Shown: positions 4,670 through 39,571 of the stretch, piece after piece
Position numbering within the stretch: position 1 is the stretch's first letter
Layout of the letters: each line of letters starts with the position of its first letter
Origin: Eledone cirrhosa
Lineage: Eukaryota
NCBI GenBank assembly: GCA_964016885.1
Contig: OZ024746.1
Span: 50,902,001 to 50,966,000, forward strand
Direction: 5' to 3'
DNA length: 64,000 nt
The notes under the pieces: generated by a model
Told to the model about the DNA's origin: nothing
What the model saw: only the letters and a program-made list of their open reading frames with translations
The model's database searches: none
Made by a program: the position numbers and the translations under genes

Positions 4670-4853
4670 GAATAATTGCCTTATGTTGTTTATTACATAA
4701 CTATATATATATATTTATATATATATTTATATATATATATGTATATATTTATATATATATTTATATATATATATGCCCACTACTAATTTTCATAGAAAAA
4801 GCATATAACGATATGTGCTTTTACGATTCTCTAGAAAGGCCGGAAGATAGGTA

Positions 4854-4898
4854 AATATTGCTGATGAGATGTAACAACATCGAAACTAGTCCAATATT
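4854..4898 (+). ncRNA. Minimal type I hammerhead ribozyme
   Basis: AATATTG-CTGATGA-GATGT(AACA)ACATC-GAAA-CTAG-TC-CAATATT. 7-bp stem I, 5-bp stem II, palindromic ACTAGT stem III, GUC cleavage after 4891. Confidence 0.92.
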
Positions 4899-5226
4899 CC
4901 TTGTCTGGCTTTCTGGAGAATAGAGGAAAGGTGTTTCCTCGAAAACCAGTATGACTCTAAAAACCGGTTTGTCTGTGTGTTTACATACAGAATAGCTGGA
5001 CACTCACAGTAAAGTGTCCAGTGAAAAACTCGGTACATCTACATATGTACACGTGTGTGTATTCATATGCATACTAGTATTTCAGTATACATATGTGGAT
5101 GTACATTTTTAACTGAATTGTTTAAGCGTCAGTCATACAAAAGTGAGTTACAAACGAAACGAAATTTAATTTCGTTTCGTTATTTGTTTTTATCGTCTCC
5201 GCTGAACCGGTACGTACTCACGCTCT

Positions 5227-5234
5227 ATGCAAAT
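5227..5234 (+). promoter_or_regulatory. Octamer motif ATGCAAAT conserved between retrozyme-like families A and B
   Basis: 100 nt upstream of the hammerhead core. Also at 40348-40355, 46904-46911 and 62548-62555 (minus) and 47292-47299 (plus) in family A. Function is inferred. Confidence 0.45.
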
Positions 5235-5319
5235 TAGTCTGCCCACTACTAATTTTCATAGAAAAAGCATATAACGATATGTGCTTTTACGATTCTCTAG
5301 AAAGGCCGGAAGATAGGTA

Positions 5320-5364
5320 AATATTGCTGATGAGATGTAACAACATCGAAACTAGTCCAATATT
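5320..5364 (+). ncRNA. Minimal type I hammerhead ribozyme (identical second copy)
   Basis: Same sequence as 4854-4898, shifted by 466; predicted cleavage after 5357. Confidence 0.92.
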
Positions 5365-5666
5365 CCTTGTCTGGCTTTCTGGAGAATAGAGGAAAGGTGT
5401 TTCCTCGAAAACCAGTATGACTCTAAAAACCGGTTTGTCTGTTTGTTTACATACAGAATAGCTGGACACTCACACTAAAGTGTCCAGTGAAAAACTCGGT
5501 ACATCTACATATGTACACGTGTGTGTATTCATATGCATACTAGTATTTCAGTATACATATGTGGATGTACATTTTTAACTGAATTGTTTAAGCGTCAGTC
5601 ATACAAAAGTGAGTTACAAACGAAACGAAATTTAATTTCGTTTCGTTATTTGTTTTTATATATATA

Positions 5667-35961: not shown

Positions 35962-36310
35962 AAAGGTAAACAGAAACAACACAATCGGTACAGTATATGG
36001 AAGGTATATATTAGATTAACGCTTGATATAGCAGGAAGAGGGTCTTAACGTTTCGGATGCTAGTCCTTCATCAGAAGAAAGAATGAGAAATAAAATAGAT
36101 TGAGGGGACGAGCGGGATGGAATTGGAAAAAATGTCTTTAGATAGAAATAACAGGTCCATTCATGTTGACATCTCTTGCAAAACTGTTGATGCTGGCGTT
36201 TTGTGTATGATATATTTTAGAAAAGTGGATGATGGAGCGCATCTACCTGAAATGGAAAAAAAAAACGTTTTGTAAAAAGAGCTATACTTGAGCACGTGCG
36301 TAAGCATGTT
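35960..36310 (-). mobile_element. PLE terminal repeat with hammerhead 36043-36078
   Basis: TCTT-CTGATGA-AGGA(CTAGCA)TCC-GAAACGTT-AAGA on the minus strand; sister copy 55280-55620 with hammerhead 55353-55388. Confidence 0.75.
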
Positions 36311-36319
36311 TGTGTGTGT

Positions 36320-37750
36320 ACCAGTAACACACTGGAATAATTACTGGCCTTGTGCCAAATGTAGAAACAATTATTATTAATGGCGGAGGATGGCAGTATC
36401 GGTATAGCGTTGGACACTATTTAGTGGCTAATAATTACCTCCCTTTACGTTTGGAATTCAAATCCCGAGGAGGTTAGCTTTGCCTTTCATCTTTATGGGG
36501 TTGATAAAATAAAGCACCAGTAATGTACAACCCTTCGATCTAATCGACTTCCCCCTTGCCTTCAAATTGCTGGCCTTATGTCTATAGTAAAAGCAATTAT
36601 TATTATTAAAAAATAAAGTATTACGGCCCTTTATGATCTGAGTTATATATATTTATATATATGCGTAGTTTCCAGTAGGTATATTGGTGTTGTACTACAC
36701 TCTGTTAAGTATTATTAGTATGGATTGGCAGTATCGGTAGAGGGTCGGACACCATGCTTTCCAGCATAGTTACGTCTCTTTACCGTCTGAGTTCAAATCC
36801 CGCCGAGGTTAACTTTGCCTTTCATCCTTACGGGGTCGATAAAATAAAGTACCAGTAATACACTGGGATAATTGCTGGCCTTGTGCCAAAAGTAGAAACA
36901 ATTATTACTATTGGCAGTATCGGTAGAGAGTCTGACGCCATGCTTTGCAGCACAGAGTTATGGCCTTTTATGGTCCGAGTTCAAATCTCGTCGAGGTTAA
37001 CTTTGCCTCTGATCCTTACGGGGTCGATTAAATAAAGTACCAGTAATACACTGGGTTAATTGCTGGCCTTGTGCCAAAAGTAGAAACAATTATTACTAAA
37101 CATTTAAGCGCGGTATACATTTGTTAAATAGTAATTCATAGTTATCTGTTCTTTGTCATTTGGACATGTCGTTGTCCCAACACAAATAACTTTGAAATAA
37201 TGGTTTCTTATTTAGGCACAAGGCTAGTAATGTGGGGCGGAGGGGAAAGTCGATTAAATCGACTGCAGTGCGTGACAGGTACTTTATTTTATCGACCCTG
37301 TAAGGATGAAAGGCACAGTTAACCTCGGTGGGATTTGAACTCAGATCATAAAGGGCCGTAACTCTATGCTGCAAAGCATGCCGCCCGACCCTCTACCGAT
37401 ACTGTCAATCCACCGCCCTCAAATAACTTTAAAATAATACTAGAACTTATTCTATATCCCCTGGAAATAGAAAACAGTGACTGAGGCGCCTACGAGGCAT
37501 CGATCTGCATCCGAGAGATGTAGGGTTTGATTTGCTCGATTATTATTATAGGTATTTATAAGGTGGATTGGCAGTATCGGTAGAGGGTCGGACGCCATGC
37601 TTTGCAGCAAAGAGTTACGGCCCTTTATGGTCTGAGTTCAAATCCTGCCGAGGTTAACTTTGCCTTTCATCCTTACGGCATCGATAAAATAAAGTACCAG
37701 TAATGTACTGAAATAATTGCTGGCCTTGTGTCAAATATAGAAACAATTAT
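36320..37750. mobile_element. SINE cluster (about six copies, both orientations)
   Basis: SINE consensus at 36380, 36720, 36910 and 37560 (+) and 37195-37420 (-). Confidence 0.85.
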
Positions 37751-38106
37751 TATAGGCATTTACGTTGGGTTGACCACATTTCAAATTTTATTTATATATC
37801 TAAACATATATACGTCCATATGTACTCACACACACAAACATGTATGTAAATATACATATGGAACTAGCTAATGAAACGGCAGGAACTCAGCCGTTAGGGT
37901 CCCGACTCTTTATAATATATAACATACTCTACAACCCCAGGTATCAAGTACTCTGTTGCGTAATGGTTTAACCTGCTTCAAACTGAATCCATCTATATAT
38001 ATATATATTTTTTTTTTTAAAGTTGAGACAGTAAACAGAAAACAAAAAAAAACGTGGAAGCGAAGAGGCAGTACAAATGTTATTAGTTTCACGCTTGAGA
38101 GTGGAG

Positions 38107-38130
<24 letters not shown>

Positions 38131-38138
<8 letters not shown>

Positions 38139-38683
38139 TTAGAAATTATAAGCTTTCACCGTATTTTTAGACTAAAGAAATTTCTAGCCTGATAGTGGGG
38201 TTTATAACCCTTGGAGAAATGGAAAAAGATGAGTGTTGCCGTACATGGGAGTCGAACCCACATTTTTGGTTATCCAGACCACTGTGCTACCATTACACCA
38301 ATACACATCCCATCTCTTTCCATTCGAATTAGAAGCTATGAACTTAGCAAGTGAATGATAAACAAGCAAATTATAAACGTAAACATGTAAGTATGTTTTT
38401 GAAGCGGTGCGCGAGTTTGAAATTAGAAATTAGTGGTGTAATGGTAGCACAGTGGTCTGGATAACCAAAGATGTGGGTTCGACTCCTATGTACGGCAACA
38501 CTCATCTTTTTCCATTTCTCCGAGGGTTATAAACCCCACTATCAGGCTAGAAATTTCTTTAGTCTAAAAATACGGTGAAAGCTTATAATTTCTAATTTCT
38601 AATTTCAAACTCGCGCACCGCTTCAAAAACATACTTACATGTTTACGTTTATAATTTGCTTGTATATATATATATATATATAC

Positions 38684-38743
<60 letters not shown>

Positions 38744-38930
38744 ATATGTATATATATATATATATACAAGCAAATTATAAACGTAAACATGTAAGTATGT
38801 TTTTGAAGCGGTGCGCGAGTTTGAAATTAGAAATTAGAAATTATAAGCTTTCACCGTATTTTTAGACTAAAGAAATTTCTAGCCTGATAGTGGGGTTTAT
38901 AACCCTCGGAGAAATGGAAAAAGATGAGTG
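38131..38930. mobile_element. 291-bp circularly permuted unit with a tRNA-like module, present as direct and inverted copies around (TA)n
   Basis: ATTAGAAATTAG recurs at 38131 and 38422. tRNA-like TGGTGTAATGG..GGTTCGACTCC at 38434-38495 (+) and 38238-38300 (-). 38497-38663 is inverted relative to 38766-38930. Confidence 0.75.
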
Positions 38931-38941
38931 TATATATATAT

Positions 38942-39571
38942 ACAATATGTTGAAAAGGTAACACTAAAGAGAGATAGTGTGCCATCAATAAAACAGGGAA
39001 AACCACCAGTGTATGGAGTCTATAATCTAAGGAAGGCAGGGTAGACACACAATAATTAAAAATATAAATTAAAATGTATATACGCACCTCTATAACTATA
39101 TAACACACGCATACAAATCCAAAGAGATCTGTTTCGCCAGGAAGTTGTTGACTGAAATGGAATAGCCTATGGTTCATCAGCGCGTGCAAGGCTATACATT
39201 CCAGACAACTCTAAGAGAATCTAAAGCGACTGTCCAGCTACACGCGGCAGAGAGATGTCACAGCGTGTTTAGGGCAGTGAACCAATGGTATCTGAAGGAC
39301 GAGCTGCTAGAAAGATAGACTCCATATACTGGTGGTTTTCCCTGTTTTATTGATGGCACACTATCTCTCTTTAGTGTGTTACCTTTTCAACATATTGTAA
39401 TTTAAAGAGCTCAGGATTCCTTTTCCTTTGAGCACATTATTGACAGGGAATAGCGAGATTCTATGGCTCCATTAATTTATCGTGATATTTCGCTCCTTAT
39501 AACAGTCTTTCCTCTCTTTCTGTTTGGTTGAGTACACTTCTTTGAGTGGTTTTTGGACTGCCCTTTCTAGC

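Follow-up and report, generated by a model that had tools for sequence, protein, structure and literature searches.

A dispersed non-coding repeat family with an internal tRNA-like module and the insertion signature of Penelope-like retrotransposons (PLEs)

We find that a tandem unit located within a 64,000-nt window (the whole stretch of DNA that was analysed) of an animal genome is a confirmed member of a dispersed non-coding family, which occupies thousands of TA-repeat sites and whose units of 260-290 nt fall into four subfamilies, A to D. Taken together, our observations lead us to believe that this is probably a ribozyme-free family that carries an internal tRNA, that depends for its mobility on a PLE acting in trans at (TA)n targets, and whose RNA is folded and methylated in the manner of a tRNA.

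Organization of the locus

Followed in the direction of the tRNA, the locus proceeds from copy 1 to an inverted copy 2, a TA tract and copy 3, and the terminal redundancy, inverted copy and tail-to-tail copies noticed in the original prediction are all borne out. Copy 1 (38131-38433, minus strand) belongs to subfamily A and comprises a whole 291-nt unit plus 12 nt. Its tandem period of 291 nt is marked by a 12-nt repeat (38131-38142 and 38422-38433), which is in part an internal 7-nt repeat, and exceeds the typical subfamily-A unit of 290 nt by one extra A. The 3' end of this copy is the first of two fixed family ends (end 1, at 38131) and meets an (AT)n target tract (38107-38132), an equal junction being present in 27 of 105 sampled copies.

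Copy 2 (38434-38663, plus strand) is the inverted partner. It is 5'-truncated at tRNA position 8, such that its tRNA-like module (38434-38497, plus strand) is without positions 1-7, and the inverted arms formed with copy 1 (38131-38303 and 38431-38603) are 98% identical. Its 3' end is the second fixed end (end 2), which lies 60 nt past end 1 and creates a PLE-type tail. Folding and subfamily comparison reveal a hairpin at 38570-38622 (plus strand) that holds end 1 in its loop, exhibits one double-sided change between subfamilies, and might be a candidate RT-binding site. Copies 2 and 3 lie tail-to-tail across a common (TA)n target tract (38663-38766) and stop at the same terminal base. Copy 3 (38766-38931, minus strand) likewise has end 2 as its 3' end, is 5'-truncated just behind the tRNA, and is bordered by (AT)n on its 5' side as well, up to 38942. 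The locus therefore probably records two insertions: copies 1 and 2 as one inverted event, and copy 3 as a separate arrival at the same TA tract.

Two further features are evident nearby. An element with terminal inverted repeats of ~65 nt, recognized by eye at ~38943-39398, adjoins copy 3, and a cluster of a different repeat, SINE-like and ~190 nt long, occupies 36500-37760 in both orientations.

The repeat family and its subfamilies

Exact 21- to 27-mers searched against the 3.0-Gb assembly, whose SINEs would seem to be of an octopod type, returned 1006 matches for subfamily A, 1668 for B, 50 for C and 348 for D, where these figures are motif counts rather than copy numbers, and a 24-mer from the tRNA returned 1017 exact matches. 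Because family motifs give at least 1000 exact genome-wide matches, compared with 0 for reversed control patterns, the family is not a product of chance. Unit lengths are 290 nt for A, ~261 nt for B, ~272 nt for C and 265-287 nt for D (three tandems). A DNA similarity search was also conducted, in which 40 of 1800 candidates were scored and 150 matches listed. Subfamily A is the youngest, and 39 whole A units are 97.4% alike, although these were taken from the best matches and constitute a biased sample.

Between subfamilies, the tRNA is the best-conserved part of the unit (83-97%, versus 61-84% for the 3' part). Variants are shared by tandem units at a rate of 32% (raised by one shared deletion), by inverted partners at 12%, and between loci at 3%, figures that give no evidence for circles and do not separate a rolling-circle from a tandem template. 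A subfamily-C array on contig C4 (~61.01 Mb; locus L281) holds 10 units plus a partial unit that are 95-100% alike, and is a candidate source locus.

A search of prokaryote genomes gave 0 matches, and an exact 25-mer had 0 matches in viral contigs. A looser pattern recovered 27 tRNAs from viral contigs (L252-L278), mostly Trp(CCA) by eye. These have a 17-nt D arm in common with the module, but the pattern was self-chosen and thus provides no evidence for viral tRNAs as the origin. A host source tRNA was also sought with a D-arm pattern and set aside: among its 18 matches, those examined or recognizable were family variants, and one of the 18 led to subfamily D.

The tRNA-like module and the question of Pol III transcription

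In copy 1, ARAGORN reports a tRNA at 38237-38309 (minus strand) with anticodon GGA and U37, and the Rfam tRNA scores are 37.3 and 34 bits relative to a cut-off of 29. As had been proposed, this tRNA-like part is internal and caps a long stem (fold z -2.7), whose 5' arm (38309-38325, minus strand) and 3' arm (38216-38233, minus strand) have 97% of cells paired and 0 double-sided changes. The cloverleaf is complete in subfamilies B, C and D, each with 7/7 acceptor pairs; subfamily A forms 5/7, having lost pairs 1-2. Across the subfamily alignment 91.9% of cells are paired, but covariation is weak since there is a single double-sided change. Anticodon GGA and U37 are common to A-C, and D carries GGC together with a non-canonical T-loop without A58. 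This non-canonical anticodon loop and unstable identity (U37; GGA versus GGC) indicate that the module is not a working cytosolic tRNA.

The segment at 38290-38300 (minus strand) of copy 1 is the A box, as judged by the box consensus. The B box and T-loop (38248-38258, minus strand) include the GUUCRA motif as given in bioRxiv 10.1101/202747, with A58 at 38252. Both boxes are present in A-C, and Pol III transcription of the family is plausible. Three observations speak against the Pol III-driven RNA of the original prediction. First, subfamily D has spread with a broken B box. Second, although both boxes are intact in subfamily A, a single chain out of 36 ends at the head of the tRNA there. 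Third, the tRNA is followed at a distance of 15 nt by a T5 run (38223-38227 in copy 1, within the 3' stem arm), a potential Pol III terminator that is present in 256 of 301 occurrences (with repeated counting of overlapping loci), such that Pol III transcripts would have to leak past it to form multimers. This run also departs from the SINE2 definition, which calls for a body free of Pol III terminators. Cassandra elements, each of whose LTRs is described as retaining a Pol III promoter together with a terminator (PMC7215508, PMC10886601), are a precedent for such read-through. On balance, we are slightly doubtful that a Pol III start is the main use of the module. In read contigs of unrecorded run type, depth (one value per contig, possibly reflecting the source sample) is higher 3' of the T-loop, a difference on which we place no weight.

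Two fixed 3' ends and the PLE signature

Copy ends were collected from 79 subfamily-A loci on contig C1, taken in list order behind the first 100 listed matches so as to avoid a bias to long copies, and from three loci provided by the DNA similarity search. Among 133 chains, 105 stop at one of the two fixed 3' ends (27 at end 1 and 78 at end 2), and the remaining 28, which represent odd ends, internal deletions and some B copies, were excluded from the end counts. TA repeats, as microsatellite targets, follow 94 of these 105 ends, and an inverted partner is present at the 5' side in 62 of the 105 copies. Every inverted pair sampled (23/23) combines end 1 with end 2. Pairs of end 1 with end 1 were not samplable in this collection, whereas pairs of end 2 with end 2 were, and none was seen among the 23. 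The 5' ends are variable, so that copies form incomplete, pLTR-like tandems truncated at differing points, and 17 of the 105 copies are longer than one unit, which requires a template longer than one unit. The gathered copies support the permuted tandem unit of the original prediction, as well as its template of more than unit length.

The polarity of these ends is fixed by an autonomous element of the same genome. Locus L098 (2886-8195) contains an intact PLE encoding an 857-aa protein with RT and GIY-YIG domains and with the same two-ended, TA-flanked architecture, which establishes that the fixed ends of the family are 3' ends. Its inverted copy spans 2267 bp and is 100% identical, indicating a very recent insertion. 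The two fixed ends of our family are separated by 60 nt, compared with 30-40 nt in the literature and ~48 nt in L098.

The two-ended, inverted, TA-flanked pattern is a PLE signature and matches the architecture of pLTR, inverted copy and tail described in PMC8557442. According to the in vitro work presented in PMC11167929, both target strands are cut by a PLE and reverse transcription is initiated from a pair of neighbouring internal sites that bound the tail, and the two fixed ends fit such an insertion route. We therefore regard it as very likely that the family is mobilised by a PLE, as was originally surmised.

A different reading, that this is a standard SINE with a tRNA head, or else a satellite that became tandem after insertion, could draw on the A and B boxes, on a cluster of B and C copies that begin near the tRNA edge (see below) and on the subfamily-C array of 10 units plus a partial unit. 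Copies that begin at the tRNA head had been named beforehand as the mark of a SINE, and only 1 of 105 subfamily-A copies starts there, while 35 of the 36 chains that reach this point run past it. Together with the two fixed ends and the rule obeyed by inverted pairs, these counts refute the SINE or satellite reading, which we consider extremely improbable.

Truncation at the T-loop and at the tRNA edge

A feature absent from the original prediction is a hot spot of 5' truncation in the T-loop. In subfamily A, unit positions 181-190 are reached by 76 chains, 30 of which break off within them, compared with fractions of 0-0.13 in all other 10-nt bins, where the hot-spot bins were chosen post hoc after the data had been seen. 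These unit positions correspond to tRNA 57-66, and in copy 1 the family-wide hot spot (tRNA 59-68) maps to 38242-38251 (minus strand). Four junctions fall exactly at 59, which is the base after A58. Stops at tRNA positions 57-68 number 31/71 in A, 10/18 in B, 11/24 in C (11/19 if the array is counted once) and 4/23 in D. Subfamily D, which is without A58, thus differs from pooled A-C (Fisher p=0.0096, with C as 11/19).

We infer that the hot spot fits a block of reverse transcription by m1A58. This modification is reported to stop retroviral RT (PMC8599865), and the account in bioRxiv 10.1101/202747 states that TRMT6/61A methylates GUUCRA loops outside of tRNAs and that m1A truncations can land on neighbouring bases. 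Folding and methylation of the RNA in tRNA fashion would be a likely explanation for frequent T-loop stops, and whether A58 methylation itself is the cause appears to us to be evenly balanced. Read-through A copies exhibit no excess of substitutions at A58 (2/90), most hot-spot junctions are located not at 59 but at 62-65, within a CATG palindrome or AT microhomology, and subfamily D may use another RT, all of which count against methylation.

The same observations give some weight to an account in which the element remains PLE-dependent, but where a stable tRNA core, the palindrome and AT microhomology create the hot spot without any modification. This account is attractive because the majority of junctions fall on the CATG palindrome or on an ATG beside (AT)n, because there is no mismatch excess at A58, and because D copies still stop inside the tRNA (14/23 at positions 12-65, with stops along its entire length, in a small sample). 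However, few chains stop at an 8-nt palindrome at unit positions 105-112 (3 of 35) or at the foot of the long stem (3 of 94). Moreover, subfamily D keeps the CATG/GTAC microhomology palindrome and yet has a weaker hot spot whose focus is lost, and four junctions lie precisely at 59. We view this modification-free account as a credible possibility, though one with a less than even chance of being correct.

A second cluster of 5' ends is present in subfamilies B and C, where 13 of 33 tRNA-holding chains begin between -7 and +12 relative to the first base of the tRNA. The corresponding figures for A are 0/13 in the same sample and 1/36 in the tail sample, and for D 2/11, only at position 12. The B and C cluster is compatible both with initiation by Pol III and with cleavage by RNase P, the two being inseparable here. 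If RNase P (and Z) were to excise tRNAs from multimers to generate unit-length or circular RNA, then the tRNA would replace a hammerhead, and this would agree with the restriction of the cluster to the subfamilies that have a full acceptor as well as a canonical T-loop and with the several copies that begin at or beside G1. Conversely, several B and C ends are 3-7 nt upstream of G1, the youngest subfamily, A, no longer forms the outer pairs of the acceptor, leader and trailer are base-paired with each other, tandem units within loci are non-identical (the 32% variant sharing noted above), and PLEs in this genome are mostly without a hammerhead. Processing by RNase P and Z is therefore improbable in our estimation.

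Searches for self-cleaving ribozymes

No intact hammerhead had been seen in the unit initially, and wider searches uphold this. Rfam searches of four multimeric loci with E values up to 10 gave no ribozyme and recovered the control at window positions 4843 and 5309. A genome-wide hammerhead core pattern had 6 matches, of which 0 are in the family, and a structural hammerhead descriptor applied to A-C gave 0 matches and recovered 2 of 4 control motif types. A loose covariant-core scan of A-D, which recovered all controls, produced scattered matches, none of which is a hammerhead by eye. In sum, neither strand of the unit yielded a hammerhead. Consensus descriptors for HDV, twister and pistol ribozymes (run with no positive control) gave 0 matches.

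Two stretches were considered as hammerhead remnants, one with GAAA and a palindrome on the sense strand and one with CUGAUAG on the antisense strand, and both were rejected since neither is conserved across subfamilies. The proposal that the unit hides an unrecognized or decayed self-cleaving ribozyme gains something from subfamily A, whose GAAA plus short palindrome is identical to the 3' half of a real minimal hammerhead that belongs to another family of the genome. However, the CUGANGA box ahead of GAAA is found in no family copy, GAAA is altered in C and D, and the Rfam and covariant-core results point in the same direction. A concealed ribozyme, which the original prediction had entertained, is thus very improbable.

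The view that the tRNA stands in place of a hammerhead proves unnecessary. A Pfam GIY-YIG search yielded 10596 candidates, of which 150 were scored and 30 loci examined, and a canonical hammerhead core precedes the first TA tract in 1 of these 30. Given that sampled autonomous PLEs are mostly without a hammerhead, and that the motif is described as dispensable for PLE insertion in vitro (PMC11167929), there is no need to regard the tRNA as a substitute for a ribozyme.

The control used above is a true retrozyme located at window positions 4774-5659, where a 466-nt tandem (1.9 copies) between TA tracts carries a type I hammerhead per unit (Rfam HH9, E 3e-8). Cores that resemble a hammerhead and lie within repeated sequence, identified by regex only, are also present at window positions 36074, 40267, 55384, 62467 (minus) and 62707 (plus). 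At 784-1447, a 220-nt tandem of three copies that are 99% alike lies beside a TA tract and may be another PLE-dependent element; a pattern scan of this tandem for the exact hammerhead core found none.

Proposed mechanism and relation to known elements

We propose that RNA would be produced from tandem source copies, with Pol III starting at the tRNA (~7 nt ahead) and reading through a leaky T5 run, or alternatively by read-through transcription from outside. A host enzyme of the TRMT6/61A type might then methylate A58. Both strands of a (TA)n site would be cut and two cDNAs would begin at end 1 and end 2, where the genomic pattern is observed and the PLE enzyme is our supposition. The cDNAs would stop randomly or at the T-loop, and short microhomology would allow them to be joined to one another, yielding inversions, or else to the TA tract, in keeping with the observed genomic pattern. 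Copies that run past the tRNA demand templates longer than a unit, and internal starts on a multimeric template are sufficient to create the apparent permutation, making self-cleavage unnecessary.

Animal non-LTR retrozymes are the closest relatives in form. As described (PMC7229834; bioRxiv 10.64898/2026.07.22.740005), they share with our family non-coding tandem units of ~300 nt, a range from monomers to multimers, and a proposed dependence on PLEs. Our family has the short tandem non-coding units but no type I hammerhead per unit and includes an internal tRNA module, and circles of its RNA are hypothetical. Non-autonomous PLEs without a hammerhead, such as the Chlamys-dependent MRC1 type and the Naiad architecture, are depicted in PMC8557442 with pLTR-like tandems, an inverted 5'-truncated copy, a tail at one end, microsatellite targets and no canonical hammerhead. 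In contrast to these elements, our family has a full tRNA fold and little 3' likeness to the sampled autonomous partners. The Schistosoma SM-alpha and Sj-alpha elements (PMC6765202) are comparable in that a Pol III promoter inside tandem units is said to transcribe the next unit, but they carry an active hammerhead, and PLE-type ends do not figure in that description. TRIMp3 elements, including Helenus, whose LTR contains a tRNA, and the 5S-bearing Cassandra and Ajax, are similar in placing a small-RNA gene copy in a terminal repeat, and Cassandra is reported to form arrays (PMC10886601, PMC7215508). However, TRIMp3 elements depend on LTR retrotransposons (PBS, PPT, 5-bp TSD), hallmarks that were not apparent in our sampled copies, and although our family likewise has its tRNA inside the repeat, its 5' ends are variable and TA-flanked, with no LTR-internal-LTR layout, fixed 5' ends or 5-bp TSD.

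In searches of published papers, we found no PLE-mobilised, tRNA-bearing, ribozyme-free element. Curated repeat libraries, such as the one behind PMC13282606, may hold the family under another label, and its probable classification in a repeat library would be as a SINE. We see it as the PLE counterpart of tRNA- and 5S-bearing TRIMs. The pairing of end 1 with end 2 offers in-genome support for the two-start, both-strand insertion model derived in vitro, and a 290-nt template makes RNA recognition, tail formation and inversion directly testable. If the hot spot does reflect m1A58, then 5'-truncation maps could be used to read out RNA modifications of retroelements, with subfamily D serving as a natural control.

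A broader hypothesis holds that these elements exemplify an undescribed, recurrent class of ribozyme-free tandem PLE parasites that mimic tRNAs and are started, cut and methylated by host tRNA enzymes. We rate this as rather unlikely. If true, m1A58 would be a fossil RT stop preserved in thousands of copies, recording RNA modification on a retroelement template, and the tRNA would serve these elements as the hammerhead serves retrozymes.

Autonomous PLEs of the genome

One observation against trans-mobilisation by a PLE of this genome as the best explanation is that 30 of 10596 GIY-YIG loci, together with L098, yielded no partner that has a long 3' stretch in common with A, B or C. Likewise, 20 tail-only loci inspected with 4.5 kb of upstream sequence were all short truncated copies, with no partner element. 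One lead has emerged from sequence likeness: end 2 of subfamily D resembles end 1 of the commonest sampled autonomous family over ~11 nt at the junction, which is a lead only.

Loci L101-L129 represent several abundant autonomous families with long 3' UTRs and two TA-flanked ends but without a canonical hammerhead, and in one of these families the tail contains a run of (AT)n. The 3' part of the L098 PLE contains a hammerhead-like core with a U4C change. Loci L097-L100 (L098 at ~270-2410) also include a ~1.85-kb PLE-like family without a long ORF, which has fixed ends flanked by TA and, close to them, hammerhead motifs on each of the two strands, an ambisense arrangement of ribozymes that is reminiscent of viroid-like RNAs.
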